A DNA stretch of 64,000 nt. Source: Opitutia bacterium. GTDB lineage: Bacteria > Verrucomicrobiota > Verrucomicrobiia > Opitutales > UBA953. The position numbers were made by a program, and so were the translations under genes. Where the stretch lies: the NCBI GenBank assembly GCA_003569165.1, contig BGOI01000005.1, positions 9,560-73,559 on the forward strand, written 5' to 3'. Under the pieces are notes generated by a model, which made no database searches, was not told the DNA's origin, and was given only the letters and a program-made list of their open reading frames with translations. How positions within the stretch are numbered: the first letter of the stretch is position 1; each line of letters begins with the position of its first letter. Positions 3,768 through 54,226 of the stretch are shown in pieces.

Positions 3768-5237
3768 TCAGGCGTGTTTCAGGATACCCTTCACCACGTG
3801 GCCTTCGACGTCGGTCAGGCGGAATTGGCGGCCCTGGTAGCGGAAGAGCAGGCCTTCGTGGTTGATCCCGAAGAGGTGCATCAGGGTGGCCTGCATGTCG
3901 TGGATATGGACCCGGTCCTTGGTGATGTTCCAGCCGAAGTCGTCGGTCGCTCCATGGACGTAGCCCGGCTTCACGCCGCCGCCGGCGAGCCACCAAGAGT
4001 AGGCGCGGCCGAAGTGGTCGCGTCCCTTGAAGCCAGTGCCTTGTTGGTTCTGGCCGAAGGGTGTGCGGCCGAATTCGCCACCCCAGACGACGAGCGTATC
4101 GTCGAGGAGGCCGCGCTGCTTGAGATCCTTGACGAGCGCCGCGCTAGCCTGGTCGGTATCGAGACACTGCTGCGCGAGCTGGCCGGTGGTAAGGTTGTTA
4201 TGCTGGTCCCAGCCGGAATGCATCAGCTGCGTGAACCGGACGCCACGCTCGGCGAGGCGGCGGGCGATGAGGCAGTTATTGGCGAAGGTGCCGGGCTTGA
4301 GGACTTCCGGGCCGTACATCTCGAGGACGGACTTCGGCTCGTTCTTGAAGTCGAGTAGGCCAGGGACCGACGTCTGCATGCGGAAGGCCATCTCGTATTG
4401 CGAGATGCGCGTGTCGATCTCGGGGTCGCCGACCTGACCGAAGTGCTCGCGGTTGAGCGCCTGCATGTCATCGAGCATCGTGCGACGCGCCTCGCGGCTG
4501 ACGCCAGCCGGATTGCCGACGTACGGGACCGGATCGCCGACGCCGCGGAAGCGGACGCCCTGATGCTTGCCGGGCAGGAATCCGTTGGACCAGTAGTGCT
4601 CGAAGAAGAGCTGGCCACAGGTCTTGGCAGCGTCGGAGGAGGTCATCACGACATACGAAGGCAGATCCTCGTTCATCGTGCCGAGACCGTAGGAGAGCCA
4701 GGCGCCCATCGAAGGACGGCCCGGAATCTGCGAGCCGGTCATGAAGAACGTCACGCCGGGGGCGTGGTTCACCGCCTCGGTGTTCATCGAGCGGACGACG
4801 CAGAGTTCGTCAGCGATGGCGCCGGTGAAGGGCAGCATCTCGCTCATCTCGATACCGCTGGAGCCCCATTTCTTGAAGGGCTTGATGGCGCCGACGCAGT
4901 TGTACTTCGCGTAGCCGCTCGACATCGAGGAGAGACGGGTATCGCCGCGCACGCTGGCGGGGATTTCCTGACCGGCCATCTTTTCGAGCAGCGGTTTGTG
5001 GTCGAAGAGGTCGACGTGCGAAGGGCCTCCGCCCTGCCAGAGGCAGATCATGCGCTTAGCCTTGGGGGCGAAGTGCGGCAGGCCAGGCAGACCGCCAATG
5101 GGCTTATTCGCGCCCTTGGCATCGCGGGCGAGGAGGGAGCCGAGGGCAACGGCGCCGATGCCTTGGACGCCGGCACTCAGGAAGCTGCGGCGAGTCAGGC
5201 GCTCGCGCCATTCGGAGGGAGAGAGTTCGAAGTCCAT
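3768..5237 (-). CDS. DUF1501 domain protein (alkaline-phosphatase/sulfatase-like), Tat-exported
   Basis: 489 aa. Twin-arginine leader TRRSFLSAG. DUF1501-type blocks GGGPSHVDLFD, GGEFGRTP, GRDHF. Starts 4 nt after the upstream PSCyt/DUF1553 gene. Confidence 0.85.
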   Translation of the reverse strand: MDFELSPSEWRERLTRRSFLSAGVQGIGAVALGSLLARDAKGANKPIGGLPGLPHFAPKAKRMICLWQGGGPSHVDLFDHKPLLEKMAGQEIPASVRGDTRLSSMSSGYAKYNCVGAIKPFKKWGSSGIEMSEMLPFTGAIADELCVVRSMNTEAVNHAPGVTFFMTGSQIPGRPSMGAWLSYGLGTMNEDLPSYVVMTSSDAAKTCGQLFFEHYWSNGFLPGKHQGVRFRGVGDPVPYVGNPAGVSREARRTMLDDMQALNREHFGQVGDPEIDTRISQYEMAFRMQTSVPGLLDFKNEPKSVLEMYGPEVLKPGTFANNCLIARRLAERGVRFTQLMHSGWDQHNNLTTGQLAQQCLDTDQASAALVKDLKQRGLLDDTLVVWGGEFGRTPFGQNQQGTGFKGRDHFGRAYSWWLAGGGVKPGYVHGATDDFGWNITKDRVHIHDMQATLMHLFGINHEGLLFRYQGRQFRLTDVEGHVVKGILKHA

Positions 5238-5241
5238 GGGA

Positions 5242-7743
5242 TCAGTCGCGGGTGATGGCGGCGTCGAGGTTGTAGAGGGCGAGGCAGGTTGCGGTGAGCG
5301 CGGCGTGTTCGGCGGCGGGGAGTGTCGCGTCGCGCTTGCTTTCGCCGATCACGAGTAGCGCCTCGGCGCCCTTGGCGTCGGCCGCGTAGACCGCGCGTTG
5401 ATTGGCGAGCATCTTGGCGATCAGGGCGGGTTCCTTGCCGGAGGGTTCACGGCCCAGCACGAGGGCGAAGGCGCGGGCGAGGCGGGCTTCGTCAGTCGTC
5501 TGCTCCTTCGTCACGCGCTGGGCGAGCATACGCGCGGCTTCGACCCAGGTCGGGTCGTTGAGCATCGTGAGCGCGTGCAGAGGCGAGGACGTCACTGCGG
5601 TGCGGACGCGGCAGGTCTGGCGCGCCGAGATGTCGAACATGTTCACCGGCGCGATGGTGCGGCGCCAGAACGTGTAGAGCGAACGACGGTAGAGGTCGGC
5701 CCCTTTCGACTGGGGGTAGGTGAAGTCTCGCTCCTTGGTGATGGCGAGGCTCTCCCATGGGCTGTCGGGGAGATAAGGGTAGACCGGCACGCCGCCGACC
5801 TGGGTGTTGAGCAGGCCGCTGGAACGCAGGGCGACGTCGCGGAGCACCATCGAGGGGAGACGCAGGCGCGGCGCGTGCGAGAGGAGTTTGTTTTCCGGAT
5901 CCTTCTGCAACTGCTCCTTGGTGACGTGGCTGGACTGGCGGTAGGTCTTGCTGGTCAGGATAACTTTCTGGAGGGCCTTGATCTTCCAGCCGGACTCGCG
6001 GAATTCGACCGAGAGCCAATCGAGCAGATCTTGGTGGGTGGGGCGGTCGCTTTGGACGCCGAGGTCTTCGGAGGTGCGCACGATGCCCTTGCCGAAGAGC
6101 TCCTGCCACTGGCGGTTGACCTGCACGCGGGCGGTCAACGGGTGTTCGGGACGGAAGAGCCATTGGGCAAGGCCGAGACGGTTCTTCGGGGCGTCCTTCG
6201 GCAGCGGCGGCAGGAAGCCAGGCGCGTCGAAGGTGACCTTCTCCTTCTTCGCGAGGTAGGCGCCGCGGTCGAGGATGTTGGTTTCACGCGGCTGGTCGTC
6301 GGCCATCACCATCACGCGTGGCAGGACGTCGCCGCGGTAGCCGTCGAGCAGCTGCTTGGCGCGGTCGAGCTTCTTCATCGCGGGGATCGTCTTCCGGTCC
6401 TCGGCGAAGACGTTCTTGTTGTAATGGTCGCGGAGCTTCTTCGTCTCGGCCGCGACGCGCTTCTTGTCGGGCGCGAGCAGGGCTTCGAGTTCCTTGGGCA
6501 GCATGCCCTTGTCCTTGGTCGGCTTGGCGAGCCAGGCTTCGAAGGCCTTGGTCTGAAGCATGGCGAAGTCTTTGTTCAGCGCGTCGAAGTCGCCCTGAAG
6601 TTTGGCGAGTTCCGCCGCTTGTTCGGGCGACGGGGCTTCGACGACGGTAGTGTCGAGGCGGAAGCGGCTACGGCCGCCGGTCTGCGTCTGGCCTCCACTC
6701 GGGGTGCCGCGCTCCTTCACGTGGTTGAAGGCATCCATCCACTGGTAATAGTCTTTCTGCGAGATCGGGTCATACTTATGGTCGTGGCACTGGGCACAGG
6801 CGACCGTGAGGCCGAGCCAGGTGGTCGTCGTGCTCTCGACGCGGTCGAAGAGGCTGACGTAACGCTGTTCCTCGGCGATGTTACCGCCTTCGCCGTTGAG
6901 GATGTGGTTACGGTTGAAGGCCGTGGCGATCTTCTGGTCGAGCGTCGCGTTCGGGAGCAGGTCGCCCGCGAGCATCTCGGTACTGAGCTGGTCGAAAGGC
7001 TTGTCTGCATTGAGGTTCTTCACCAACCAATCGCGCCAGATCCACTGGAAGGTGTCGCCGTCCTGCTGGAAGCCATTGCTGTCCGCATAACGCGAGGCGT
7101 CGAGCCACGGCAATACCATGCGTTCACCGTAGTGCGGCGAAGCCATGAGGCGATCAACCTGCTTACCGTAGGCGTCGGGACTCGCATCGGCGAGGAACGC
7201 GGTGGTCTCCTCGGGCGTGGGCGGCAGGCCGGTGAGATCAAGCGACAAGCGGCGGAGGAGCGTGGCCTTGGGGGCTTCGGGCGAGAGCTTCAGGCCGGCC
7301 TTGGTCAGCTTCTCGACCACGAAGGCGTCGACAGGGTTGGTCTCGCCGTTGGCCGGCAGGGCGGGGCGGATGGGCGCGACGAAGGCCCAGTGTTCCTTAT
7401 ACTCGGCGCCTTCGGTGACCCAGCGGCGGAGAATCTCCTTCTGCGCCGGCGAGATGGTGCGATGGGAATCCGGCGGGGGCATCACTTCGTCGGAATCGGT
7501 CGAGACGAGTCGCTTGATGAGTTCGCTGGCCTCGGCGTCGCCCGGGACGAAGGCCTTTTTTTCCAACGCCGCGGCACGGACGTCGAGGCGTAGCTTGGCC
7601 TTGCGCTTGTTGCCGTCGGGTCCGTGGCAGTAGAAGCAGTTCTCGGAAAGGATTGGCCGGACGTCCTCGTTGTAGTCCAGCTTCGCGGCGAAGGCGGGCA
7701 GGGCGACGACGAGGGCGGCGAGGATGAGGCTGATCCGGGGCAT
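5242..7743 (-). CDS. PSCyt1 / DUF1549 / DUF1553 protein (planctomycete cytochrome c domain protein)
   Basis: 833 aa. Signal peptide, CxxCH in CFYCHGPDGNKR, second CxxCH in the DUF1549 core (CAQCHDHKYDP), long DUF1553-like C-terminus. Confidence 0.85.
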   Translation of the reverse strand: MPRISLILAALVVALPAFAAKLDYNEDVRPILSENCFYCHGPDGNKRKAKLRLDVRAAALEKKAFVPGDAEASELIKRLVSTDSDEVMPPPDSHRTISPAQKEILRRWVTEGAEYKEHWAFVAPIRPALPANGETNPVDAFVVEKLTKAGLKLSPEAPKATLLRRLSLDLTGLPPTPEETTAFLADASPDAYGKQVDRLMASPHYGERMVLPWLDASRYADSNGFQQDGDTFQWIWRDWLVKNLNADKPFDQLSTEMLAGDLLPNATLDQKIATAFNRNHILNGEGGNIAEEQRYVSLFDRVESTTTTWLGLTVACAQCHDHKYDPISQKDYYQWMDAFNHVKERGTPSGGQTQTGGRSRFRLDTTVVEAPSPEQAAELAKLQGDFDALNKDFAMLQTKAFEAWLAKPTKDKGMLPKELEALLAPDKKRVAAETKKLRDHYNKNVFAEDRKTIPAMKKLDRAKQLLDGYRGDVLPRVMVMADDQPRETNILDRGAYLAKKEKVTFDAPGFLPPLPKDAPKNRLGLAQWLFRPEHPLTARVQVNRQWQELFGKGIVRTSEDLGVQSDRPTHQDLLDWLSVEFRESGWKIKALQKVILTSKTYRQSSHVTKEQLQKDPENKLLSHAPRLRLPSMVLRDVALRSSGLLNTQVGGVPVYPYLPDSPWESLAITKERDFTYPQSKGADLYRRSLYTFWRRTIAPVNMFDISARQTCRVRTAVTSSPLHALTMLNDPTWVEAARMLAQRVTKEQTTDEARLARAFALVLGREPSGKEPALIAKMLANQRAVYAADAKGAEALLVIGESKRDATLPAAEHAALTATCLALYNLDAAITRD

Positions 7744-17347: not shown

Positions 17348-17491
17348 GGGGGTGGTTAAGGGGTGGGGGTAGGGAGAGGGGTAGGGGTAGGGACAACAGG
17401 AGGCAAATGGATTTCGGAAAATGGCTTTCTGATTCTACCTACGCTCTTGGGTTGAATCTCCTATCCCCACCCCTATCCCTACCCCAACCCC
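17348..17491. repeat. Inverted pair of (GGGGTA)n-type G modules in a divergent promoter region
   Basis: GGGGGTGGTTAAGGGGTGGGGGTAGGGAGAGGGGTAGGGGTAGGG (17348-17392) and CTCCTATCCCCACCCCTATCCCTACCCCAACCCC (17458-17491). The C-rich strand faces each flanking start codon. Confidence 0.85.
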
Positions 17492-17499
17492 TAAAGCAT

Positions 17500-18117
17500 A
17501 TGACCTCCCTCCGTCTCCTCGCGGCCTTCGCCGCCCTCGTCGTTTCGGCCTCTGCCGCCGACGTCAAACTTGAGTCCGCCTTCAACGGCAAGGACCTCGC
17601 CGGCTGGAAGACCTCCGGCCCTGACGCCTTCTGGACCGCCGCTGACGGCGTCCTCACGGGCGTCAACGATCTCGCCTTCAAGGATTACAAGAAGGGCAAT
17701 ATGCTCTACACCGAGAAGTCCTATCAGGACGTCGTCATCGAGTGCGAAGTCCGCTTCAGCGGTGAGATCGACAGTGGTATCATGGTGCGCCGCGATGCCG
17801 CCGGTAAGAAGGATATCCAGATGCAGATTGGCGTCTCCCGCTCCCTGAAGAAGGACATGACCTGCACGTTCTACGTCGGCAAGTATCCCGAAGCCGGCTG
17901 GGCCCCGAAGGTCCCCGCGCTCTGGAAGAACAACGAGTGGAACAAGGTCCGCTTCCAGGCCAAGGGCGACACCTACACCGTCTGGCTCAACGGCGAGCAG
18001 GTCTCGAACTACGTCGACGCCGGTTACCCCATGGCCGCTCCGGTGGGACTCCAGGTGCACGGCGGCGTGAAGATGAAGGTCGAATACCGCAACATCGCCA
18101 TCGGCGAGATCAAGTAA
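17500..18117 (+). CDS. DUF1080 (3-keto-disaccharide hydrolase-like) domain protein, secreted
   Basis: ATG 17500 gives MTSLRLLAAFAALVVSASA. FNGKDLAGWK, DGVLTG, WNKVRFQAKGDTYTVWLNG and LQVHGG..VEYRNIAI fit the DUF1080 pattern. Confidence 0.75.
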   Translation: MTSLRLLAAFAALVVSASAADVKLESAFNGKDLAGWKTSGPDAFWTAADGVLTGVNDLAFKDYKKGNMLYTEKSYQDVVIECEVRFSGEIDSGIMVRRDAAGKKDIQMQIGVSRSLKKDMTCTFYVGKYPEAGWAPKVPALWKNNEWNKVRFQAKGDTYTVWLNGEQVSNYVDAGYPMAAPVGLQVHGGVKMKVEYRNIAIGEIK

Positions 18118-18142: not shown

Positions 18143-18168
18143 GGGCGGGCGCAACCCCGCCCTTTTTT
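18143..18168 (+). terminator. Intrinsic terminator after the DUF1080 gene
   Basis: GGGCGGG-CGCAAC-CCCGCCC followed by TTTTTT. Confidence 0.85.
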
Positions 18169-18362
18169 GTGCATGGTTACCTCAGAAAGATGACAGGCCG
18201 CAGCTTGCTGGCCCATTTAAGGACTGAATCACGCCATTTAAAAATAACTTAAGAGCGAATTACGCCGTATAACACCCCCGTCCCCTTTACAGGGGAAATG
18301 TATATATTTATTCGCAACTTGTCGGACATCTAACTGTCTCAAAGACAACCCCCGACCGACCC

Positions 18363-19694
18363 ATGAAACTCCACCGCAACTGCGAAGGAAATCACCCTGA
18401 TGTTCTCTCGGCTCTCAGCCGTCGCGACTTCATGCATATTGGCATGATCGGCACGCTCGGCCTGAGCCTGCCTAACATGCTGCGCCTGAAGGCGTCGGCG
18501 ATCCCCAGCGTCGAGTCCTTCAACGCGATGGCCGACTCCGTCATCCACATCTACCTGCCCGGCGGCATGGCGCAGCACGAGTCTTGGGATCCGAAGCCCT
18601 TCGCCTCGCCCGACTACCGCGGCCCGTACACGCCGATCAAGACTTCCATCCCCGGCGAATACGTCGGCGAGAAGTTCGTCAACATCGCGAAGATCATGAA
18701 CAAGCTGACCATCGTCCGTTCGATGACGCACGGTGAAGCGGCGCACGAACGCGGTACGCACAACATGTTCACGGGCTACCGCCCGAGCCCCGCGATCAAG
18801 TTCCCGAGCTACGGTTCGGTCATCTCGCACGAGCAGGGCAGCCGCAACAACCTGCCGCCCTACGTCGTCGTCCCGAGCCAGAGCATCCCTGACCAGGGCA
18901 CCGGCTACATGAGCAGCGCCTTCGGTCCGTTCGCGCTCGGTAGCGATCCGGCCGACAAGGGTTTCGCCGTGCGCGACCTCCTCGCCCCGAAGGACGTCAC
19001 CACGCAGCGTTTCGATCGCCGCCGCAGCATGCTCGCCGCCGTCGACGAACACTTCCGTGCCACCGAAAAGTCCGACGCCATCGGCGCCATGGACAGCTTC
19101 CAGCAGGCCGCCTACGGCCTCGTCAGCAGCGCCAAGGCCCGCGAGGCCTTCGACCTCTCCAAGGAGTCCGACAAGCTGCGCGATGAATACGGCCGCAATA
19201 CCGCCGGCCAGCGCTTCCTCCTTGCCCGCCGCCTCGTCGAGGCCGGCGTCCGCATGGTCTCCGTCACCTTCGGCGGCTGGGATCACCACTCGAACATCAA
19301 GAGCGCCTTCGACGGTCAGGCCCCGAGTTTCGACCAAGCTTTCGCCCGCCTCATCACCGACCTCCAGGACCGCGGCATGCTCAAGCGCACGCTCGTCCTC
19401 GTGAGCTCCGAGTTCGGCCGCACGCCGAAGATCAACGGAACCAACGGCCGCGACCACTGGCCGCGCGTCTTCTCCGTCGCCATGGCAGGCGGTGGCATGA
19501 AGGAAGGTTACATCCATGGCGCCTCCGACGCCCTCGGTGGCGAGCCGGACCGCGATGCGGTCGGCCCGGAAGACTTGGCCAAGACCATGTACCGCGTCCT
19601 CGGCATCAACGCCGATAAGCGCATCATGTCGGATGGCGGCCGTCCGATCGACATCGTCAACGGCGGTCGCATCATGACCGACTGGTTGGCCTGA
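18363..19694 (+). CDS. DUF1501 domain protein, Tat-exported (operon gene 1)
   Basis: 443 aa. Twin-arginine leader SRRDFMHIG. GGMAQHESWDPKP, GGWDHH, SSEFGRTPKING..GRDHW. Confidence 0.85.
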   Translation: MKLHRNCEGNHPDVLSALSRRDFMHIGMIGTLGLSLPNMLRLKASAIPSVESFNAMADSVIHIYLPGGMAQHESWDPKPFASPDYRGPYTPIKTSIPGEYVGEKFVNIAKIMNKLTIVRSMTHGEAAHERGTHNMFTGYRPSPAIKFPSYGSVISHEQGSRNNLPPYVVVPSQSIPDQGTGYMSSAFGPFALGSDPADKGFAVRDLLAPKDVTTQRFDRRRSMLAAVDEHFRATEKSDAIGAMDSFQQAAYGLVSSAKAREAFDLSKESDKLRDEYGRNTAGQRFLLARRLVEAGVRMVSVTFGGWDHHSNIKSAFDGQAPSFDQAFARLITDLQDRGMLKRTLVLVSSEFGRTPKINGTNGRDHWPRVFSVAMAGGGMKEGYIHGASDALGGEPDRDAVGPEDLAKTMYRVLGINADKRIMSDGGRPIDIVNGGRIMTDWLA

Positions 19695-19765
19695 ACCGGC
19701 GCCTGAACCCCCATCCGCCCACCTGTCGGTGCGGCGGGCGGGCTGCGCCCCGCTGAAACGTTTTT

Positions 19766-22204
19766 ATGAAGTTCCGTCACCTTGCCGCGCTCCTAATCGC
19801 CCCGCTCGTCGCTTGGGCGGCTTACCCCAGCATGACCTCGCTGAAGCCGCACGGCGGCCAGATCGGTGCTGACGTCAAGCTGACGATCAGCGGGGCCCAA
19901 CTCGATGATTTCGAGGACCTCATGTTCTACACCCCTGGCTTCAAGGTGAAGAGCGTCGAGAGCCGCGCCAGCAACAAGGTGGAACTGACGCTCTCGATCG
20001 ATAAGTCCGTCCGCGCCGGCAACCACGTCATGCGCGTGCGCACGAAGTCTGGCATCTCGCATATGCGCCAGTTCTTCGCGAGCCCCTTCGCGAACGTTGA
20101 GGAGAAGGAGCCCAACACCGAGTTCGCCACGGCCCAGCCGATTGCGCTCAACCAGACGATCGAAGGTGTGATCCTCGCCGAGGACGTCGATTACTACAAG
20201 GTCGCGGTCAAGAAGGGTCAGCGCATCGGCGTCCAGGTCGACGGCCTTCGCCTCGCCGCTATTCCCAACGGCGCGCTCGATCCGTACATCGCCATCCTCG
20301 ACAAGGACAAGTTCGAGAAGGCCTTCTCCGACGACACGATTCTGCACCGCCAGGACGGCTATTGTTCCTTCACCGCGGAATACGACGGCGATTACTACGT
20401 GATGGTCCGCGAATCTTCCTACCGCGGTTCCGCTAATTCTTACTACCGACTCCACGTCGGCGATTTCCGTCGCCCTGACGCGATTTACCCCGCCGGTGGC
20501 AAGCTCGGCTCCAAGCTCAACGTGCGTTTCCTCGAGGCACGCGATTCCTTCGCGGAGGAACTCGTCCTGCCGACGGAGAATGACGCCGAGTTCGTCCTTT
20601 ACCCGAAGTCCCAGTCGCCCGCGCCTTCCGGCAACCTCTTCCGCCTCTCGACCATCGATAATACCCTCGAGGCTGAGCCGAACGAGTCGTTCGAGAAGGG
20701 CACCCTCGCCGTCGAGGCCTCGGCTTACGCCCTTAACGGCATCATCGAGAAGCCCGGCGACGTCGATTGTTTCCGCGTCCCCCTCAAGAAGGGCCAGGTC
20801 TTCGAATGCCGCGCCCTCGCCCAGATTCTCGGTTCGCCCCTCGATCCGATCGTTAATATCTACTCCCCTAAGGGCGCTTCGCTCGTCGGCAATGACGACG
20901 GCGGAGGTATGCGCCGCCTGGATTCCCGCTTTAAGATCACCGCTTCGGTCGACGGCGTCTACACGGTCCGCATCGCCGACCACTTGGAGCGTGGCGGAGC
21001 TAACTTCGTGTACCGCATCGAGATGGTGGCCTCGCAGCCGAGCCTGACGTTCGCCTCGCCGGACTACACCGTGAACGATACCAACTACCGACAGTTCATG
21101 GCCGTGCCCAAGGGTGGCCGCATGGTGCTGCTCGAGAACTTCACCCGCAACGGCGTCGGCGGTGACTACCGCTTTGAACTCAAGGATCTTCCGGCTGGCG
21201 TGAAGCTGCTCGAAGATGCCGCGCCAGGTGACCTCCCTGGCGTGCCGCTCGTACTCGAGGCCGCCGCGGATGCCCCTCATGGCGGCGCCATCGTCACGCC
21301 TCTCCTCCAGCCGAAGGATCCCAAGAACCAGATCGTCGGCCAGATGCGTCGCACCTATGACATCGTGCGCATTGGTAATACCATCTACTATCAGGGCCTC
21401 GAAGACCAACTGCCGGTCGCCGTCGTGGATGAGGCGCCTTACTCCCTGGAGATTCAGAAGCCCGAAACCCCGCTCGTCCGTAATGGCGTCTTCAATCTCA
21501 AGGTGATCGCCAAGCGTAAGGAAGGTTTCAAGGGAGCCATCCGCGTCTTCATGTGCTGGACGCCTCCGGGCGTCTCCTCGCTCGGCGAGCAGACCATCGC
21601 CGCTGACGCCACCGAGTGCGTCTTCCAGCTTAACGCCAACGCCAACGTCGACACGAAGCCGTGGAAGTTCGTCGTGCAAGGCGAGGCCACTGCCGGTAAG
21701 GGTAACGTGTACAACGCTTCGCCGTTCGCCGAACTGGCGACCGAGGCCCCCTATGTCGCCGCCAACGGCATTCCCCTCACCGCGCTCGAGGTCGGCACGC
21801 CCGGTGTGATGGCAACCAACTTCGAGGTGACCCGTCCCTTCGAAGGCGAGGCCGTCGCCCAACTCGTCGGCGCCCCCGATACGATTCGCATCGCACCCAT
21901 CAAGGTGACGAAGGACACCAAGGAACTACGCTTCACCGTCGAGACCGACGAAAAATCCCGCATCGGCAAGACCGCCGGCATGTTCGTCCAGGTCGATATC
22001 CCGGTCGGTAAGGGCTTCGCCACGCACCGCATCGCGCTCGGTTCGATCCTGCGCCTTGACGCAGCCCGTAAAGCTGCGCCCGCGCCGGTCGCCAAGGCGG
22101 CCACGCCGTCCGCCGCCAAGGTTGCTGCCCCGGTGGCCGCCGCTCCAGCCGCCCTTTCTCGTCTCGAACAGCTCCGTCAGAAGAACGAAGCCCCCAAGAA
22201 CTGA
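19766..22204 (+). CDS. Secreted protein with two pre-peptidase C-terminal (PPC)-like domains (operon gene 2)
   Basis: 812 aa. Signal peptide. Two modules starting EKEPNTEFATAQPI / EAEPNESFEKGT with DVDYYKV / DVDCFRV and YYRLHV / VYRIEM ends. Ala/Pro-rich C-terminus. Confidence 0.6.
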   Translation: MKFRHLAALLIAPLVAWAAYPSMTSLKPHGGQIGADVKLTISGAQLDDFEDLMFYTPGFKVKSVESRASNKVELTLSIDKSVRAGNHVMRVRTKSGISHMRQFFASPFANVEEKEPNTEFATAQPIALNQTIEGVILAEDVDYYKVAVKKGQRIGVQVDGLRLAAIPNGALDPYIAILDKDKFEKAFSDDTILHRQDGYCSFTAEYDGDYYVMVRESSYRGSANSYYRLHVGDFRRPDAIYPAGGKLGSKLNVRFLEARDSFAEELVLPTENDAEFVLYPKSQSPAPSGNLFRLSTIDNTLEAEPNESFEKGTLAVEASAYALNGIIEKPGDVDCFRVPLKKGQVFECRALAQILGSPLDPIVNIYSPKGASLVGNDDGGGMRRLDSRFKITASVDGVYTVRIADHLERGGANFVYRIEMVASQPSLTFASPDYTVNDTNYRQFMAVPKGGRMVLLENFTRNGVGGDYRFELKDLPAGVKLLEDAAPGDLPGVPLVLEAAADAPHGGAIVTPLLQPKDPKNQIVGQMRRTYDIVRIGNTIYYQGLEDQLPVAVVDEAPYSLEIQKPETPLVRNGVFNLKVIAKRKEGFKGAIRVFMCWTPPGVSSLGEQTIAADATECVFQLNANANVDTKPWKFVVQGEATAGKGNVYNASPFAELATEAPYVAANGIPLTALEVGTPGVMATNFEVTRPFEGEAVAQLVGAPDTIRIAPIKVTKDTKELRFTVETDEKSRIGKTAGMFVQVDIPVGKGFATHRIALGSILRLDAARKAAPAPVAKAATPSAAKVAAPVAAAPAALSRLEQLRQKNEAPKN

Positions 22205-22213
22205 TTTCCTGCC

Positions 22214-25027
<2,814 letters not shown>

Positions 25028-25040
25028 TCTTTTCGTTCGC

Positions 25041-28000
25041 ATGTCCGCCGCCTTCCCTCATTTTCGTTGGCTGACCCGTCGTTGCCTTATCTTGGCGGCG
25101 GGGTTGGTCTCTGCCGCCTCCTGGGCGCAGGAGAACGAGAAACTCACTTACGACGACCACATCCGGCCGATGCTCGAGAACAAGTGCTTCTCCTGCCATA
25201 ATCCTGATAAGAAGAAGGGCGGCCTCGAACTCACCAGTTATGCTGGTCTCATGAACGGCGGCAGTGGCGGCGCGGTCGTTGACGCGGGTAATCCTTCCGG
25301 TAGCCGACTCTGGACCTGTAGCACGAAGAAGGAAGAGCCTTTCATGCCGCCGGAAGGCGCACCGCTCGAACCTAAGGATCTCGCGATGCTCTCCAAGTGG
25401 ATCGAGGGCGGCGTACTCCAGGCCAAGGGCAGCGTGGCCAAGGCTTCCAATAAGCCTAAGGTCGACCTTTCTTTCGCTGGCGGCGCCGGTAAGCCCACCG
25501 GCGCGGTGGCCCGTCCCGAAAACGTGTTGCTCGAGCCCGTCATCGTGACGCCGCGTACTTCCGCGGTCATCGCCATGGCGGCGAGCCCGTGGACTTCACT
25601 CCTCGCCGTCGCCGGACAGAAGCAGATTCTCCTCTACGACACCGACTCGCACGACCTCGCAGGCATCTTGCCCTATGCTGAAGGTTATGCCCGCTCGCTG
25701 AAATTCAGCGCCAACGGCTCACTGCTCATCATGGGCGGCGGTCGCGGTGGCAAAATCGGCCACGCCATCGTCTGGGACGTCAAAACGGGTAAGCGTGTTA
25801 CCGAGATTGGCAAAGAGTTCGACCAGGTGATGTCGGCCGACATCTCGCCGGACCATGGCAAGGTCGTCCTCGCTACCAACACCAAGAAGGTGAAGTGCTT
25901 CGACGTCGCTACGGGCGAGCAGCTCTACCTAATCGCCAAGCACACCGAGTGGGTGACCGGCGCCGACTTCAGTCCGGACGGCATCCTGCTCGCGACCTCT
26001 GACCGCAACGGCAACGTCTATGTCTGGGAAGCCGATAACGGCGGCGAATTCTACAATCTCGGTCAGCATAAGGGCAGCGTCACCGACCTCGCTTGGCGCG
26101 CCGACTCCAATATCCTCGCCAGCTGTTCTGCGGACGGGATCATCACCACTTGGGAGATGAAGACCGGCAAGCAGGTCGCCACTTGGGGTGCCCATGGCGG
26201 CAACGTGCAGTCTGTCTCCTTCTTGCCTGACGGCCGCCTGATTTCGTGCGGAGCCGACGGTACCACCGCCATGTGGAGCGTCGACGGTAAGCGACTCGAG
26301 CATGCTCAGGGGATCAAACAGGCTGACCAAGTTGCCAAGGTCGTCGGACTCCACGACTCCAAGACCTTCGTCTCCAGCAACTGGTTGGGTGAGGTCCGTT
26401 TCTTCGAGACCGCAACCGGTCGCGAGATCATCCAGGTCTCCAGCAATCCTGTTAAGATCTCCGACCGCATGGTCGCACTCGAGAAGCGCCTGAGCGAACT
26501 CGAGCCGGTGCTCGCGCCCTCCGAGGCTGCTGCGAAGGTCGCTGAAGCCAAGATTCCTGCCGCCGAAGCCGTTTTGGCTAAGCTTAAAGCCGAAGGCGAA
26601 CCCGCTTCGAAGAAGCTCGCTGAACATGAGGCCAAGAACACTGAGGTCACCAACGGCCTCAAGTACTGGCAGGGTATGAGGACCAAGGCGAAGACTGCTG
26701 CGGAAACGGCGACCGCCGCCAAGGGGATTGCCGACTGCCGCAGCGGCCTGACTTATCACGGCCAAGAAATCGCCAAACTGAAGCCCGCCGCCGGTGCGTT
26801 CCGCGCCGCCGAAGCGGAGGTTGCTAAAGTCCGGACCGAACTCGCCTCCGCCCAGGCCAAGGCGCGCGATGTCGCCGCTGAGATCGCCGCCCATCGCGAA
26901 CGCATCGTCTCCCTTAAGGCCGCCCAGTTCAATGTCGGCGTCCTTACCGAGCAGGATAAGCTGGCCAAGCTCGAGCAGGATATCGCCGACCTCGTGGCCG
27001 CCAAGGCTGAGAACGAGGCCGCTAAGGTGACCGCCGCAGCCCGCATTGAATCGTCAAAGAAGACTGCTGCCCAGAACGAGCAGCTGATTCCGAAGCAGCA
27101 GGCGGAGCTCGAAGCGCTCAAAGCCGAATTCACCGCGCTCGACAAGACCCTGTCGCCATTGCGCCTGAGTGAAGCTGAAGCCCTCGGCAAGATTGAGGCC
27201 CAGCAGAAGCTCATCGACGCTCAGTCCGAGGCCATCGTGCGCCTAGGCCAGGATCGCGACGCCATCGTGGCCGTCGCCACCGCCGCTGCCGCCGCTTACC
27301 GCGATCAATATACCACGCCGCTCCGCGCCCGCCTCACCGAGGCCACCGCCAAGGTCGACGAACTGAAGAAGGTCGCCGACACCGCAAAGGTCGCCGCTAC
27401 CAAGGCGAAGGCCGCCGTCGCGGACGCAGTTTCGAAATCGAAGGGGCTCGCTCTCTCCTCCGTCAAGGCCGCCGATGAGGCTAAGCAGGCCGGGGTGAAC
27501 CTCGCCGCGGCCGATAAAGCCTTCGGCGAAGCCCGCACTTTCGGTGCCGTCTTCTCCTTTAGCTACTTCTCTCGCAAGAAGCAGACCGAGCAGCAGGTCA
27601 CCGAGGCCAAGATCGCGCATGCGAAGGCCAAGGCAAGGCAGGGCATCGCCGACCAGGAGCTCGTTGCGGCCAAGTCCGTCGAGCAGACCCTCCTCGCCAC
27701 GCAGGCCGCCGCTGATGCCGCGGTCGTCGCCGCTGACAACGCGGTCGCGCCCGCCGGTGTCGCCGTGGCCGCTATCGCCAAGGAGCGTTCGATGCATCTC
27801 GCCGAACGCGAGAAGCTCGCCGCCCCCGGCGTCGCCGCCGAGAAGGATTACGCCGCTAAGCTGCCCGCTCTCCAGGCTTCCGTACAGAAGGCCAAGGAGG
27901 GTCTCCCGGTGCTCGAGAAGGCGCTTGTCGCCGTCCGGGTCCAGTTGACCGAAGCCGGCAAGCCCGTCGAGGCTAAGCGTCTCCTCGTGGATGCCGCCGC

Positions 28001-28217
28001 GAAGACCCTCGAGCTCACCAAGAGCGAGAAGGCCAACGCTGAGAAGGCGCTCGCCGCCGCCCAGAAGGATATCCCGCAGCGCGACAAGAACCTCGAGGAG
28101 ATCGCCCAGTCTTACGCCGAACTCACCCCGCAGGTCGAACCGATGAAGGCCAAGGTCAAGGCCGCGCAGGAGCAGTATTTTGCGATGCTGCCCAAGCGTG
28201 AAGTCGCGAAGAAGTGA
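25041..28217 (+). CDS. PSCyt1 cytochrome-c-like domain + WD40 beta-propeller + ~590-aa Ala/Lys/Glu-rich helical region (operon gene 4)
   Basis: 1058 aa. Signal peptide. CFSCHNPDKKKGG. WD40-like blades (GHAIVWDVKTGK, SDRNGNVYVWEA, SADGIITTWEMKTGK, GADGTTAMWSVDG). From about residue 475 (nt 26463) the sequence is low-complexity helical. Confidence 0.8.
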   Translation: MSAAFPHFRWLTRRCLILAAGLVSAASWAQENEKLTYDDHIRPMLENKCFSCHNPDKKKGGLELTSYAGLMNGGSGGAVVDAGNPSGSRLWTCSTKKEEPFMPPEGAPLEPKDLAMLSKWIEGGVLQAKGSVAKASNKPKVDLSFAGGAGKPTGAVARPENVLLEPVIVTPRTSAVIAMAASPWTSLLAVAGQKQILLYDTDSHDLAGILPYAEGYARSLKFSANGSLLIMGGGRGGKIGHAIVWDVKTGKRVTEIGKEFDQVMSADISPDHGKVVLATNTKKVKCFDVATGEQLYLIAKHTEWVTGADFSPDGILLATSDRNGNVYVWEADNGGEFYNLGQHKGSVTDLAWRADSNILASCSADGIITTWEMKTGKQVATWGAHGGNVQSVSFLPDGRLISCGADGTTAMWSVDGKRLEHAQGIKQADQVAKVVGLHDSKTFVSSNWLGEVRFFETATGREIIQVSSNPVKISDRMVALEKRLSELEPVLAPSEAAAKVAEAKIPAAEAVLAKLKAEGEPASKKLAEHEAKNTEVTNGLKYWQGMRTKAKTAAETATAAKGIADCRSGLTYHGQEIAKLKPAAGAFRAAEAEVAKVRTELASAQAKARDVAAEIAAHRERIVSLKAAQFNVGVLTEQDKLAKLEQDIADLVAAKAENEAAKVTAAARIESSKKTAAQNEQLIPKQQAELEALKAEFTALDKTLSPLRLSEAEALGKIEAQQKLIDAQSEAIVRLGQDRDAIVAVATAAAAAYRDQYTTPLRARLTEATAKVDELKKVADTAKVAATKAKAAVADAVSKSKGLALSSVKAADEAKQAGVNLAAADKAFGEARTFGAVFSFSYFSRKKQTEQQVTEAKIAHAKAKARQGIADQELVAAKSVEQTLLATQAAADAAVVAADNAVAPAGVAVAAIAKERSMHLAEREKLAAPGVAAEKDYAAKLPALQASVQKAKEGLPVLEKALVAVRVQLTEAGKPVEAKRLLVDAAAKTLELTKSEKANAEKALAAAQKDIPQRDKNLEEIAQSYAELTPQVEPMKAKVKAAQEQYFAMLPKREVAKK

Positions 28218-28221
28218 TGAA

Positions 28222-28440
28222 GGGTAGGGTTAGGGGTAGGGGTTGGGGTAGGTAATATTGGCAGGGACAGCACCACGTGCTGTCCTTGCTTGTTTGGGTA
28301 GGGTCGGGACCGCGTCACGACATAGCCTTTCGTTTCGGGTGGCGGGTGGCAGCCCCGGGTGGCAGGTGGCGGGAATAGTTTGAGCAGGGAAGGGTGGTTT
28401 GACTCAACCACCCCCAACCCCTACCCCTATCCCTACCCCT
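28222..28440. repeat. Composite repeat block: G, A4 hairpin, A3, E, inverted G
   Basis: GGGTAGGGTTAGGGGTAGGGGTTGGGGTAGG (28222-28252). GGACAGCACCACGTGCTGTCC (28265-28285). GTAGGGTCGGGACCGCGTCACGACATAG (28298-28325). GGGTGGCGGGTGGCAGCCCCGGGTGGCAGGTGGCGGG (28337-28373). CCACCCCCAACCCCTACCCCTATCCCTACCCC (28408-28440). Confidence 0.85.
28265..28295 (+). terminator. Likely intrinsic terminator of the four-gene operon (the A4 repeat hairpin)
   Basis: GGACAGCAC-CAC-GTGCTGTCC followed by TTGCTTGTTT, 48 nt after the stop at 28217. Confidence 0.6.
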
Positions 28441-28447
28441 GATAACA

Positions 28448-29677
28448 ATGCTCTCCCGTCGTCGTTTCTTGGAATCTACTTTTGTCGCCGTCATCGCCGC
28501 TTCACTCGGTGCCGCCGAAGGTAAGCGCGCCCCGCGCGTGGTGCTGCGTTCCTCTTGGCAGACGGTGAACATCGGCGACATCGCACACACGCCTGGGATG
28601 CTGGCCCTGCTCGAGAAGTATTTCCCGGAGGCCGTGATCACCCTCTGGCCGAGCAATGTCGACAATGGCGTGAAGGAGATGCTGGCGGCCCGCTTCCCGA
28701 AGTTGCAGTTCGTCGGCCCCAAGACCGACGTCGCTAAACTCTACGCCGAGAACGATTTCCTGCTGCACGGCTCAGGCCCTTCGCTCGTGGGCGAGAAGCA
28801 GGTCGCGCTGTGGCGCCAGCAGGGCCCGAAGCCCTATGGCGTCCTCGGCATCACCCAAGGGAGCCCGTCGTCCGAGACGGCCAAAATCCTCAGCGGTGCG
28901 CAATTTGTTTATTTCCGTGACTCGGTCTCGCTCGCGACTGCTAAGGCCGCTGGCGTGAAGTGTCCGGTGATGGAGTTTGGTCCGGATGGCGCGTTCGCGA
29001 CCGACCTACGCAGTGAGGAGAAGGCTGAGGCTTTCCTGCATGGATGGGGCCTCGAGCGTGGTAAGTTCCTCTGCTGTATTCCGCGTTACCGCATTACGCC
29101 CTATTGGACGATTCACAAGGAGCGCGCCTTTGATCCCGTGAAGCAGAAGCGTAACGACGAGATGAAAGAGCACGATCATGCGCAACTACGCGCCGCAATC
29201 GTCGCGGTCGTGAAGCAGACCGACCTCAAGGTGCTGATTTGCCCCGAAGACCGCACCCAGATGACCTTGGGCAAAGAGATCCTTTTCGATAAGTTACCCG
29301 ATGACGTGAAGGACCGCGTCGTCTGGCGTCAGGACTACTGGCTGACTGACGAGGCGCTGAGCGTCTACGTCCGCAGTGCGGGTCTCTTCGGTAACGAGAT
29401 GCATTCGCCCATCATGTGCGTCGGTAGCGGCATCCCCGCCATTGTCTGCCGCTGGTCCGAACAGACCTCCAAGGGCAACATGTGGAAGGACATCGGCCTG
29501 AATGAGTGGCTGTTCGACCTCGATGACGAACCGCAGCTCGCGGGCATCGTCCCGGCCGTGCTCGCCATGGCCAAGGACCCCGCCGCTGCGAAGGCCAAGG
29601 TCGTCAAGGCCCAGGCTATCCTGCACGAACGTCAGTCCGCCGCGATTGGCCGCGTCCGGAAGGGTGTCGGCGCCTAA
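28448..29677 (+). CDS. Polysaccharide pyruvyl transferase family protein with a twin-arginine-like leader
   Basis: 409 aa. MLSRRRFLESTFVAVIAASLGAAEG leader. WQTVNIGDIAHTPGMLALLEKYFP N-terminal block, typical of PS_pyruv_trans as I remember it. Confidence 0.55.
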   Translation: MLSRRRFLESTFVAVIAASLGAAEGKRAPRVVLRSSWQTVNIGDIAHTPGMLALLEKYFPEAVITLWPSNVDNGVKEMLAARFPKLQFVGPKTDVAKLYAENDFLLHGSGPSLVGEKQVALWRQQGPKPYGVLGITQGSPSSETAKILSGAQFVYFRDSVSLATAKAAGVKCPVMEFGPDGAFATDLRSEEKAEAFLHGWGLERGKFLCCIPRYRITPYWTIHKERAFDPVKQKRNDEMKEHDHAQLRAAIVAVVKQTDLKVLICPEDRTQMTLGKEILFDKLPDDVKDRVVWRQDYWLTDEALSVYVRSAGLFGNEMHSPIMCVGSGIPAIVCRWSEQTSKGNMWKDIGLNEWLFDLDDEPQLAGIVPAVLAMAKDPAAAKAKVVKAQAILHERQSAAIGRVRKGVGA

Positions 29678-29683: not shown

Positions 29684-30646
29684 TTACTTCTTGGCCGGAG
29701 CTTTCGTCTTCGGCTTAGCCTGTTCGGCTAACATGACCGTCACGGCCGGCGTGGGCTCGTTGACGCCCGTGAAGGCGTTGTAGGCCTGCTGGAAGGCCGC
29801 AGCATCACGGACGTCGCCTTCGGCGATGAGCCACTGGTAGCGTAGCTTGAAGGGGGCTTCCGACGTGGCGATGCCCTTCGGGAAGGCGCCGAAGCGGCCG
29901 TAATCGCGGTAGGCCGAGAAGGCCGTGTCTTTCGGGTTGGAAGAATGGTTGAGGAGAACGGCCGTGAAGGTCTTGCCCTCGACCGTGAAGATCTCGGCGA
30001 CCCAAGTGAGGTCGCGGACCTTGTGGATGAGGATGTCTTTGCCCGGGTAGACGTAGGTCGTCTTCGTGCCGTCGATTTTCTCGGAGGGTCGGAACTGCGC
30101 GCCGGCGTGCTCGGGGTCGCCATCGATTTTGGCTTCACCGTGGTCGGGCTTGAGCGTGCTCTTCATCTCGATGCCGAAGTAGAAGGGAGCGGCAGGCTTC
30201 GTGAAAGTGAAGGTGCGTTCTTCGGTCAGGATGGGCTTCGCCTGGGCACCTGCGCCTTGCCAGTCAATCGAGGCCACGAAGCCGTCGGTGGTCGGCTTGA
30301 TTGCCGTGACGACCTGGTCGCCCCCGCTCATGTGCCAGCGGTCGTAGTTCTTGCCGTCGACCGTGATCTTCGCGAAGCCGAGCATGATGCCGCGGTGGTG
30401 GGTGAAGTTGAAGCCCGGGCCCTTCGTGAGGCGCAGGGCTCCGCTGGGGTCGAAGACGTGGAGGTAGGGCTTGTAGTTATCTAGGCGCTTGGCTGGGGTA
30501 CTGACGTCGTGGGACATCATGAAGCGGGCCACAACCTTGCCATCCTGGGCGATGTCGACGGCCTCGTTCGGGGTGACCTTGATGTCGGCGGCAAAGGCCT
30601 GAGTAAGGGCAAATAGGGTGCCAAGGGCGAGGGGTAGGGGGCGCAT
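29684..30646 (-). CDS. PmoA-family / DUF6807-like secreted protein
   Basis: 320 aa. Signal peptide. NYKPYLHVFDPSG..LTKGPGFNFTHHRGIMLGF resembles the PmoA-family core. Confidence 0.55.
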   Translation of the reverse strand: MRPLPLALGTLFALTQAFAADIKVTPNEAVDIAQDGKVVARFMMSHDVSTPAKRLDNYKPYLHVFDPSGALRLTKGPGFNFTHHRGIMLGFAKITVDGKNYDRWHMSGGDQVVTAIKPTTDGFVASIDWQGAGAQAKPILTEERTFTFTKPAAPFYFGIEMKSTLKPDHGEAKIDGDPEHAGAQFRPSEKIDGTKTTYVYPGKDILIHKVRDLTWVAEIFTVEGKTFTAVLLNHSSNPKDTAFSAYRDYGRFGAFPKGIATSEAPFKLRYQWLIAEGDVRDAAAFQQAYNAFTGVNEPTPAVTVMLAEQAKPKTKAPAKK

Positions 30647-40796: not shown

Positions 40797-40974
40797 GATA
40801 GGGACAGGGGTAGGGTTGGGTAATATTGGTAGGGTCGAGCATCCCTGCTCGACCGCGGCCGACCAAGGATGGTCGGCCCTACCTCGAGATAGAACGCAAA
40901 GGGAGACTGGGGACCGGATGATTGGCTGGGGTGCATGGCCGCAGCATTCTTTCCGGTTTCCGGTCTCCCTTTGC
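40797..40974. repeat. Composite repeat block: G, A1, B inverted pair
   Basis: GGGATAGGGACAGGGGTAGGGTTGGG-TAATATTGG (40797-40829). A1 at 40829-40882. GCAAAGGGAGACTGGGGACCGGA ... TTTCCGGTTTCCGGTCTCCCTTTGC (40896-40974) abutting the MFS stop. Confidence 0.85.
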
Positions 40975-43232: not shown

Positions 43233-43239
43233 TTTGAAA

Positions 43240-43485
43240 GGGGTAGGGGTGGGGGTAGGGGTAGGAAAAGACAGGGAGGGGAGGAGGGCAAGGTAATGGA
43301 GGGCACGAGGGCCGGAGGACAGGAGGACACGAGTGCCGGAGGACACGATGACACGAGTGCCAGAAATTGTCGGATAAAACAGGTCAGTGGTCGGAAATCG
43401 TGAACCTTCACATCCGCGTTCTCTGGCCCTCGTGGCATCCGGTCCTCGTGCCCTCGCTTGACTAACCGCCAACCGCTATCCGCAG
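43240..43485. repeat. Composite repeat block in a divergent promoter region: G, F, inverted F, H
   Basis: GGGGTAGGGGTGGGGGTAGGGGTAGG (43240-43265). GGAGGGCACGAGGGCCGGAGGACAGGAGGACACGAGTGCCGGAGGACACGATGACACGAGTGCC (43273-43362). TCTGGCCCTCGTGGCATCCGGTCCTCGTGCCCTCGC (43419-43456). CCGCCAACCGCTATCCGC (43463-43485). Confidence 0.85.
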
Positions 43486-53574: not shown

Positions 53575-54186
53575 TCAAACCGCCTTCTGCAGGCGGCGCC
53601 CGGCGACGTGTTGCGTAATCAGCTGGCGAACTTCGGCGCGGACCGTCCCGCCATTTTCATCGGCTAGCCACAATTTGAGTAAGCCGGCGTAGAAGCACAG
53701 AGTCTCGCGGGCGGCTAAGGCCGGGTCGAGATTGGCGGATACCAGTTTCATCCGGACGGCTTCCCCGTAGAATTCCGTCACTTCGGTCAGGAAGAGCGAG
53801 CTGGCCGACATCAGGTCCTGGCGCACGCTGGCGAAGGCGCCGACGTATTCGCATTTCCAGAGCATGACCTCGTAGGTCTCTAGCGCCTGCCGGTCGGTGC
53901 GCAGGCGATCAAGGGCCGCCTGCAGGCCGGCCTCGAGTCGCTCCAACGCGTCCCCCGTCCGAAAGTCGTCGAACCGCAGGAGCGTTCCCGTCTGTTGTCG
54001 CACCGCCATGAAGAGGTCGGCCTTGTCACGGAAGTGCCAGTAGACCGCGCCGCGGGTGACGCCGGCCTCCTTGGCGACCGTTTCCAAGGACGTGTTCGTG
54101 ACCCCCTCGCGGCTGAAAACCTGCCGGGCGCAGGTAACGATTCGGTCACGGGTAAGGGCGGCTTCTGCTTTGGTCTTGCGAGCCAT
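53575..54186 (-). CDS. TetR/AcrR family transcriptional repressor
   Basis: 203 aa. HTH TSLETVAKEAGVTRGAVYWHFRDK. Divergent from the RND operon. Confidence 0.88.
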   Translation of the reverse strand: MARKTKAEAALTRDRIVTCARQVFSREGVTNTSLETVAKEAGVTRGAVYWHFRDKADLFMAVRQQTGTLLRFDDFRTGDALERLEAGLQAALDRLRTDRQALETYEVMLWKCEYVGAFASVRQDLMSASSLFLTEVTEFYGEAVRMKLVSANLDPALAARETLCFYAGLLKLWLADENGGTVRAEVRQLITQHVAGRRLQKAV

Positions 54187-54200
54187 GGTCGGGCAAATAG

Positions 54201-54226
54201 ATTTACATACATGTCTGTATGTAAAT
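54201..54226. promoter_or_regulatory. Putative TetR operator: perfect 11-bp inverted repeat overlapping the efflux-operon start codon
   Basis: ATTTACATACA-TGTC-TGTATGTAAAT. Lies between the tetR start (54186) and covers the adaptor-subunit ATG (54211). It is the most AT-rich spot of the intergenic region. Confidence 0.65.

Follow-up and report, generated by a model that had tools for sequence, protein, structure and literature searches.

The window analysed here, a stretch of 64,000 nucleotides (nt) from contig BGOI01000005.1 of an Opitutia bacterium (assembly GCA_003569165.1), contains a compact operon of four genes, which are read from the plus strand, encode exported proteins of 443, 812, 937 and 1058 amino acid (aa) residues and are separated by spacers of 71, 9 and 13 nt (Table 1). 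Because the GC content at third codon positions (GC3) is 79-88% across all four open reading frames (ORFs), these were taken as coding. A first-pass annotation of this DNA had singled out the locus as a unit of four tightly packed same-strand genes, and its ORFs, sizes and gaps were confirmed; its further claim that the genes constitute an undescribed system was not, since the same cluster had been published, domain for domain, by Kamneva et al. (2012, Genome Biol Evol, PMC3542564, section 22, Fig. 4).

In that study, the neighbourhoods of DUF1501 genes included the "most complex gene clusters", a conserved module of the Planctomycetes-Verrucomicrobia-Chlamydiae (PVC) bacteria consisting of a DUF1501 gene (sometimes with a twin-arginine signal), a gene for a signal-peptide protein with weak PPC similarity, a PSCyt1/Big_2/PSCyt2/PSD1 gene and a PSCyt1/WD40 gene; the module was correlated with intracellular membranes (0.852), and roles in membrane targeting and electron transport were suggested (PMC3542564). 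The window operon comprises DUF1501 with a twin-arginine translocation (Tat) leader, PPC with a signal peptide, and the architectures described for the third and fourth genes, in the same order and on one strand, so that the two coincide in all four architectures, gene order, Tat/Sec signals and PVC distribution. Judged by its sequence, the operon is an Opitutales instance of that module, from which it differs in nothing essential, and does not represent a novel type of system. Five features of the present locus and its relatives are not mentioned in the text of Kamneva et al. (2012), namely a second immunoglobulin-like (Ig) domain with a CX4CH domain in gene 3, the long coiled-coil tail of gene 4, the LSRLEQLR helix of gene 2, a promoter-like motif in Opitutales and the splitting of the cluster in Verrucomicrobiaceae. 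The papers retrieved that mention DUF1501, DUF1549, DUF1553 or PSCyt assign no function to these families, and either cite Kamneva et al. or list the domains, in agreement with their earlier description as uncharacterised.

Table 1. Window coordinates (nt) of the operon, its constituent features and the related two-gene pair
Feature	Position	Strand	Size, score or remark
DUF1501 gene of two-gene pair	3768-5237	-	489 aa
PSCyt1/PSCyt2/PSD1 gene of two-gene pair	5242-7743	-	833 aa
Upstream gene, 3-keto-disaccharide-hydrolase/DUF1080 family	17407-18117		
Intrinsic terminator of upstream DUF1080 gene, 5' boundary	18147-18172	+	18147-18162, then T-run
AT-rich leader/promoter region	18163-18362	+	GC 45.5%
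Conserved cis motif TTCGCAAC-N16-TGTCT, candidate promoter of the extracytoplasmic function (ECF) sigma type	18311-18339	+	ends 24 nt before ATG
Gene 1, Tat-exported DUF1501 protein, putative catalytic metalloprotein	18363-19694	+	443 aa
Gene 1-gene 2 spacer with GC-rich hairpin	19695-19765	+	71 nt
Gene 2, Sec-exported all-beta protein	19766-22204	+	812 aa
PPC-1 of gene 2	20102-20461	+	Pfam PPC, 49.3 bits (threshold 25.9)
PPC-2 of gene 2	20669-21025	+	full-length profile match, sub-threshold, 22.2 bits (threshold 25.9)
C-terminal helix LSRLEQLR of gene 2	22154-22177	+	
Gene 3, Sec-exported PSCyt1/Ig/PSCyt1-like/Big_2/PSCyt2/PSD1 protein	22214-25027	+	937 aa
CLECH in first PSCyt1 of gene 3	22328-22342	+	
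CNSGGCH (CX4CH) in second PSCyt1-like domain of gene 3	22967-22987	+	
Big_2 of gene 3	23249-23500	+	Pfam
CAQCH of CAQCHNHPFD in PSCyt2 of gene 3	24035-24049	+	
Gene 4, Sec-exported PSCyt1/WD40/helical-tail protein	25041-28217	+	1058 aa
CFSCH in PSCyt1 of gene 4	25185-25199	+	PSCyt1 domain, Pfam, 50.6 bits
WD40 propeller of gene 4	~25575-26450	+	Pfam, 87.1 bits (threshold 27)
Helical/coiled-coil tail of gene 4	26451-28214	+	~590 aa
Terminator-like hairpin with weak T-run, 3' boundary	28260-28295	+	hairpin 28260-28290, 14-bp stem

Operon boundaries and the upstream motif

Both limits of the unit proposed in the first-pass annotation held. On the 5' side, the terminator of the DUF1080 gene (fold of -19.6 kcal/mol, z = -3.3) is kept in close relatives and is followed by a leader of 200 nt, in which the GC content falls to 45.5%, and to 39.6% in its core, compared with 63.5% for the window. 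On the 3' side, a hairpin with a 14-bp stem (-24.7 kcal/mol, z = -4.5) is kept in the relatives L028 and L053 with a compensatory A:T to G:C change, and the downstream gene, encoding a polysaccharide pyruvyl transferase (28448-29677), has a conserved upstream block of its own. The upstream terminator and AT-rich leader, the conserved 3' hairpin and the separate downstream block thus bound the operon on both sides. A terminator scan detected no terminator between the operon genes, and neither a convincing promoter nor a convincing terminator was found in the spacer between genes 1 and 2, the length of which ranges from ~32 to 75 nt in relatives; the hairpin in this spacer folds no better than shuffled sequence (z = -1.4) and was therefore not called an attenuator. 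An Rfam search in and around the operon retrieved no regulatory RNA. The gaps of 9 and 13 nt, the lack of an internal terminator, the one upstream motif and the one 3' hairpin fit a single transcript.

The only block that aligns among the upstream regions of diverged Opitutales is TTTATTCGCAAC-N16-TGTCTCAAAG. Its core, GCAAC-N16-TGTCT, has a single match in the 64-kb window (18314-18339) and precedes the ATG, mostly by 47-49 nt, in 52 of 59 Opitutales loci; of all core matches in ~2 Mb of Opitutales loci, 52 out of 59 are likewise at the pre-operon position. Neither 64 loci of Verrucomicrobiales nor 18 others carry the core at the position before gene 1. An AAC-N16-(C/T)GTC layout resembles the promoters of ECF sigma factors, and the motif may accordingly be regarded as a candidate promoter specific to Opitutales. 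A sigma-70 promoter scan 5' of gene 1 yielded nothing convincing, and a search of the window for an ECF sigma gene to pair with the motif found no sigma factor gene. At least six further core matches precede a DUF1080/3-keto-disaccharide-hydrolase homolog in other Opitutales genomes (L050, 2409-2434; L052, 159-184; L059, 1491-1516; L222, 803-828; L224, 1867-1892; L225, 861-886); the DUF1080 gene of the window itself, the direct upstream neighbour of the operon, is without the motif. Its presence before both the operon and the DUF1080 homolog suggests that the two form a small shared regulon in several Opitutales.

Domain architecture of the four proteins

Gene 1 matches Pfam DUF1501 with 362 bits, and the leader motif SRRDFM noticed in the first-pass annotation (nt 18417-18434) carries residues R20, R21 and F23, all of which are invariant across phyla. 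The same is true of the blocks IHI[YF]LPGG.A..[ED]S[WF]DPKP, RSM[TS]HGEAAHERGTHNMFTGYRPSP, GWD[HM]H and EFGRTPK.N.T.GRDHWP, and the segments HGEAAHERGTH, GWDHH and GRDHW make up a His-rich invariant site. Pfam places DUF1501 in the alkaline-phosphatase superfamily, and the earlier label "metallo-hydrolase-like" rests on this family assignment. Searching solved structures with the gene 1 sequence gave insignificant matches only; the match to arylsulfatase 8di0 (E = 0.36-0.59) is weak and confined to the C-terminal motif (SSEFGRT versus SSDHG), and a weak match to the sulfatase encoded in the window falls in the C-terminal metal-ligand motif region. The formylglycine/sulfatase nucleophile motif C/S-x-P-x-R (CxPxR) was found neither in gene 1 nor among its invariant columns. 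Gene 1 differs from the type I sulfatases and the alkaline-phosphatase superfamily in lacking CxPxR, in its His-rich site and in its export by Tat. No NCBIfam family matched genes 1-3.

Combining Pfam matches with the structural model, the domain order of gene 3 is PSCyt1, Ig, a PSCyt1-like domain with CX4CH, Big_2, PSCyt2/DUF1549 and PSD1/DUF1553. The motifs and domains named in the first-pass annotation are thus present, but the single Ig-like domain it listed is in fact one of two in the model. The second, PSCyt1-like domain has VPHSG in place of the MPP of PSCyt1, and PSCyt2 carries the invariant motif CAQCHNHPFDRW. CN.G[GS]CH and CAQCH occur in all 58 complete orthologs, and the first CxxCH, C[LV]ECH, in 50 of the 58, being missing in eight; gene 3 of Planctomycetes is without the first PSCyt1 domain. 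The model was built on an alignment restricted to orthologs sharing at least 70% identity and has a predicted local distance difference test (pLDDT) value of 65, both Ig domains being well modelled. When compared with solved structures at the sequence level, gene 3 was matched through the Big_2 Ig domain alone (teneurin-like proteins, LigA), and PSCyt1 gave only marginal matches to class I cytochromes. A tRNA_lig_CPD match in PSD1 (19.8 bits, below threshold) was set aside as noise.

The signal peptide, CFSCH motif, WD40 propeller and long helical tail attributed earlier to gene 4 were all recovered. The CxxCH motif and a PFMPP motif are present in 50/50 orthologs, and the total length varies from ~690 to 1190 aa across lineages, the tail, which also varies in sequence, accounting for ~200 to ~700 residues (~200 aa in Gemmataceae). 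Ala, Lys, Glu and Leu are abundant in the tail, in which a heptad (3.5-residue) periodicity shows up in patches, and the protein gives weak SMC and ASRP matches. Membership of the SMC family, which calls for a full-length architecture with an ATPase head, was rejected, given 29.5 bits on TIGR02168 against a cut-off of 567, with coiled-coil segments only; on these scores, the likeness to SMC is a coiled-coil resemblance only. With its periplasmic N-terminal c-type cytochrome followed by a propeller, gene 4 is laid out like cd1 nitrite reductase and the quinohaemoprotein dehydrogenases, from which it differs in its canonical WD40 scaffold, the lack of a cofactor signature and the long coiled coil, so that the resemblance is one of layout only. 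From their motifs, the products of genes 3 and 4 are both predicted to bind haem, with the PFMPP Met of gene 4 and the VPHSG His in the second domain of gene 3 as candidate distal ligands.

Gene 2 begins with a signal peptide, read from the sequence, and continues with a TIG-like domain, PPC-1, an Ig domain, PPC-2, four more beta-sandwiches, a disordered Ala/Pro linker and a C-terminal helix. The two PPC-like domains of the earlier description were thus recovered, the second scoring below the Pfam threshold and carrying the same E-x-E-P-N / D-x-D signature as the first, which is near-invariant in the family; residues 425-770 have no Pfam match. The AlphaFold model (pLDDT 88.9, predicted template modelling score 0.81) consists of about eight beta-sandwich domains, the linker (residues 770-797) and the terminal helix (799-808). 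A Foldseek search with this model retrieved generic strings of Ig and macroglobulin domains at template modelling (TM) scores < 0.2 together with the PPC domains of ColG, and no enzyme or catalytic fold was among the matches; a Qn_am_d_aIII match was set aside as noise or a generic Ig fold. The PPC modules match the Ca-bound s3a-s3b tandem of the ColG collagen-binding domains (5iku), and they may bind Ca; unlike ColG, gene 2 has no peptidase domain, and its PPC modules lie within an eight-domain beta-sandwich chain. The motif LSRLEQLR is found in 119 of 120 diverse homologs and also in most representatives of the 50%-identity clusters, at only 30-40% identity overall. The model is consistent with a scaffold protein, composed of a rigid beta-sandwich chain, a flexible linker and a conserved terminal helix and lacking an enzyme fold.

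Distribution and conservation in two phyla

L002, a metagenome-assembled genome of freshwater Opitutales, is ~98% identical to the window. The gene 2 family is large: at 50% identity (E <= 1e-30) it falls into 2,640 clusters, almost all of ~800 aa. The Verrucomicrobia patterns detected relatives in 232 species-level genomes, and the Planctomycete patterns, built from a Planctomycete-only gene 2 alignment, in at least 581. Synteny was counted only at loci with enough flanking DNA. The four-gene order across PVC bacteria, to which the first-pass annotation had pointed as a check of its proposal, is kept at 36/36 Opitutales-type loci and 45/46 loci of Planctomycetota, and the same order was seen in Pfam-annotated contigs of Gemmataceae, Phycisphaeraceae and one 9.3-Mb genome. 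In Prosthecobacter and Brevifollis, gene 2 often stands alone or with gene 3 only and the cluster is split in most genomes. In Luteolibacter flavescens, adjacency is limited to the DUF1501 and PPC genes. Since the order is kept in two phyla and broken up in Verrucomicrobiaceae, the module can be described as ancient and usually operonic, the operon not being obligatory.

Compared with Prosthecobacter-type sequences, which belong to a different class, identity is 81-90% for gene 1, ~70% for gene 3, ~60% for gene 2 and 62-65% for the cytochrome-plus-propeller part of gene 4; the corresponding values against Planctomycetota are 57-61%, 56-57%, 38-39% and 36-47%. The genes flanking the operon fall to ~70% identity already within Opitutales. 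This joint high conservation points to purifying selection. Because the first PSCyt1 of gene 3 and the tail of gene 4 vary, the conserved core comprises gene 1, gene 3 from its Ig domain onward (Ig-CX4CH-Big_2-PSCyt2-PSD1), the body and helix of gene 2, and the cytochrome and propeller of gene 4.

An association of DUF1501 with PSCyt2/PSD1 is documented (PMC3542564, PMC5615132), and the window also holds a canonical pair on the minus strand (3768-7743), with the PSCyt1/PSCyt2/PSD1 gene followed by DUF1501 at a distance of 4 nt. Such pairs belong to the same core families and are massively amplified in Planctomycetota and Verrucomicrobiota; they differ from the operon in that the PSCyt gene comes first and that a PPC or WD40 partner is absent. 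The pair of the window is paralogous to genes 1 and 3 at 24-28% identity. The operon genes fit the Pfam models less closely than those of the pair (362 versus 484 bits for DUF1501), yet the four-gene version is far more conserved among orthologs. Proteobacterial DUF1800 + DUF1501 operons (PMC5122149) likewise combine a Tat-exported DUF1501 protein with a partner of unknown function, but the partner family is another one, and cytochrome-type, PPC and WD40 components are lacking.

Several additional observations were made on the relatives. Some Prosthecobacter and Brevifollis assemblies (L202/L239, L206/L241 and L209/L242) contain two DUF1501 copies of the gene 1 type, ~81% and 72-74% identical to the window protein, so the putative catalytic gene of the module is not always single-copy. 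The neighbours of stand-alone gene 1 in Brevifollis were uninformative (a TPR protein, NuoF, a methyltransferase and an HTTM protein); in Brevifollis gellanilyticus, a vitamin-K-dependent gamma-carboxylase homolog (L170, 13332-14909, minus strand; HTTM 298 bits, VKGC lumenal domain 159 bits) lies ~4 kb from it. Nine cluster contigs (L003, L013, L017, L043, L047, L112, L142, L143 and L156) are apparently mislabelled metagenome-assembled genomes, bearing the names Akkermansia muciniphila, Klebsiella, Polynucleobacter or Candidatus Kuenenia stuttgartiensis on Opitutales- or Planctomycete-like sequences, and hence provide no evidence that the named organisms carry the module.

Other features of the window lie outside the operon. 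The conserved block 5' of the pyruvyl transferase gene, CAGGGAAGGGTGGTTTGACTCA at 28375-28400, is near-invariant in six related genomes and includes TTGACT, a -35-like hexamer. Telomere-like tracts, (GGGTAG/GGGTTA)n on one strand and (CCCTAC)n on the other, occur at 17364-17392 with 17465-17493 and at 28222-28253 with 28410-28445, these two sets being inverted-repeat pairs of 25-40 nt around intergenic DNA just before start codons, and further tracts are found at 43238-43266, 30629-30639 and 40805-40815; CCCTACCCCTA, with at most one mismatch, has 20 matches versus 0.31 expected. The C-rich arm before the pyruvyl transferase gene is kept in relatives and the G-rich arm is variable. Such tracts might act in leaders as G-quadruplexes or long hairpins, or they might represent a small repeat element. 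Finally, positions 53575-59846 hold a TetR-regulated resistance-nodulation-division (RND) efflux operon (membrane-fusion protein, AcrB-type pump and outer-membrane factor), followed by a Na+/H+ antiporter gene.

Possible function of the module

We tentatively infer, at slightly short of an even chance, that the products of genes 1-4 form one periplasmic multi-subunit assembly with the DUF1501 protein as its catalyst. Gene 1, with its presumed alkaline-phosphatase-superfamily-like fold and its His/Glu/Asp-rich invariant site, would be folded and loaded with metal in the cytoplasm, exported by Tat and act as the catalytic subunit, and gene 3 would be its dedicated partner, as PSCyt2/PSD1 proteins are of DUF1501 proteins in the many two-gene versions. 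Genes 3 and 4 would be exported by Sec, their c-type haem domains relaying electrons or sensing a ligand or redox state. Gene 2, through its Ca-type PPC and Ig domains, and the WD40 propeller and coiled coil of gene 4 would bind, space and oligomerise the assembly, the LSRLEQLR helix acting as a tethered docking peptide. The four-gene version is far more conserved than the two-gene pairs, which suggests that the substrate is probably invariant, endogenous or universal, rather than drawn from variable nutrients.

Several points weigh against this assembly. Contact among the four proteins is presumed, and haem attachment at CAQCHNH and CX4CH is putative only. The link between gene 1 and the sulfatases is weak (hhalign E = 0.017 over 41 columns), and, CxPxR being absent as well, any hydrolase chemistry would be conjectural. 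Within the gene 3 model, confidence is lowest in the conserved PSCyt2/PSD1 loops, a consequence of the identity limit set on its alignment, and a Foldseek search of the PDB with this model matched only the Ig domains, leaving the helical PSCyt2/PSD1 part without a solved relative. As for gene order, genes 2 and 3 of the otherwise intact cluster of a Phycisphaeraceae genome are separated by a nucleotidyltransferase/HepT toxin-antitoxin pair (L083, 11453-12107), all four genes stand in order at only 2 of 10 Verrucomicrobiaceae loci, and gene 1 of Prosthecobacter and Brevifollis often lies among unrelated housekeeping genes on a different contig of the same assembly; because the genes are usually dispersed in Verrucomicrobiaceae, co-transcription is not required. 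This dispersal also weakens the stoichiometric complex suggested in the first-pass annotation, plausible though that idea is. Taken to its limit, this dispersal, with each gene nevertheless retained, would agree with four independent exported proteins that are co-regulated and form no complex. We find that reading hardly credible, as the order has been kept at more than 80 loci since the split of Planctomycetota and Verrucomicrobiota, and the genes are retained together even where they lie on different contigs of the same assemblies.

The surroundings of the operon in the window, comprising the DUF1080/3-keto-disaccharide-hydrolase gene, a sulfatase, a GDSL esterase and a glucuronyl esterase, could point instead to nutrient scavenging by a specialised relative of the many DUF1501 + PSCyt2/PSD1 pairs, which may act in the manner of polysaccharide utilization genes. 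In such a module, DUF1501 would strip sulfate or phosphate esters from oligomers after their import, and substrate binding would fall to the PPC, Ig and WD40 domains. He et al. (2017; PMC5615132) tie PSCyt genes to sulfatases and carbohydrate-binding modules, and the occurrence of the promoter-like motif before the DUF1080 homolog in several Opitutales agrees with such a role. These neighbours, however, are not conserved outside Opitutales, genes 2-4 have no carbohydrate-binding module, the sulfatase nucleophile motif is absent from gene 1, and the identity of gene 1 between classes (81-90%) far exceeds what a scavenging enzyme that adapts to its substrates would lead one to expect; we regard scavenging as unlikely.

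The haem-type motifs raise the question of whether the module is instead a periplasmic redox or respiratory accessory complex, with three or four c-type haems linking the metal centre of DUF1501 to the respiratory chain and an oxidative or reductive chemistry. The CxxCH/CX4CH motifs that are invariant and the PFMPP Met that is conserved in orthologs are in keeping with this, as are Tat export, typical of cofactor-containing redox enzymes, together with the His-rich invariant site of gene 1, the proposal of electron transport by Kamneva et al. (PMC3542564), and the reported absence of the module from Akkermansia and Kuenenia. Against these stand the first PSCyt1 of gene 3, which is dispensable in Planctomycetota and some Verrucomicrobiota, and the CxxCH-x-H-x-F-D of PSCyt2, which may be a metal rather than a haem site; besides, no gene for a redox partner accompanies the cluster, and we know of no redox enzyme in the alkaline-phosphatase superfamily. 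On balance we consider this rather improbable.

A third view would make the module an element of the cell plan, the coiled coil and WD40 propeller of gene 4 and the multi-Ig chain of gene 2 acting as a periplasmic scaffold tied to the enlarged and invaginated PVC envelope. It draws on the 0.852 correlation with intracellular membranes that Kamneva et al. placed under compartmentalisation (PMC3542564), on the helical tail of gene 4 (~590 aa) and on the rigid eight-domain chain of gene 2. This correlation may simply reflect phylogeny or lifestyle; conservation is lowest in the tail, which is reduced to ~200 aa in Gemmataceae, and highest in the enzyme-like gene 1 and gene 3, not in the scaffolds. 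We find a structural role very doubtful. A bolder version of the catalytic assembly, which we regard as quite unlikely, would be a PVC-specific periplasmic machine, in which an alkaline-phosphatase-fold metalloprotein and c-type haems, carried on a WD40/coiled-coil stalk, would perform, on a conserved substrate of the envelope or periplasm, a redox-coupled reaction new to the superfamily; such a machine would be close to essential for Planctomycetota and Verrucomicrobiota with an aerobic, free-living lifestyle.

As the module has already been published, the value of this analysis lies in sharper experiments and not in discovery, and the handles now available are the invariant residues, a candidate docking peptide, the haem-type motifs and a candidate promoter. 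DUF1501 and PSCyt/PSD are among the largest function-less protein families in Planctomycetota and Verrucomicrobiota, and the four-gene module is their most conserved version, having the same order in both phyla. With gene 1 being 57-61% identical between phyla and more than 80% identical between classes, this module is the best entry point to the function of the superfamily.

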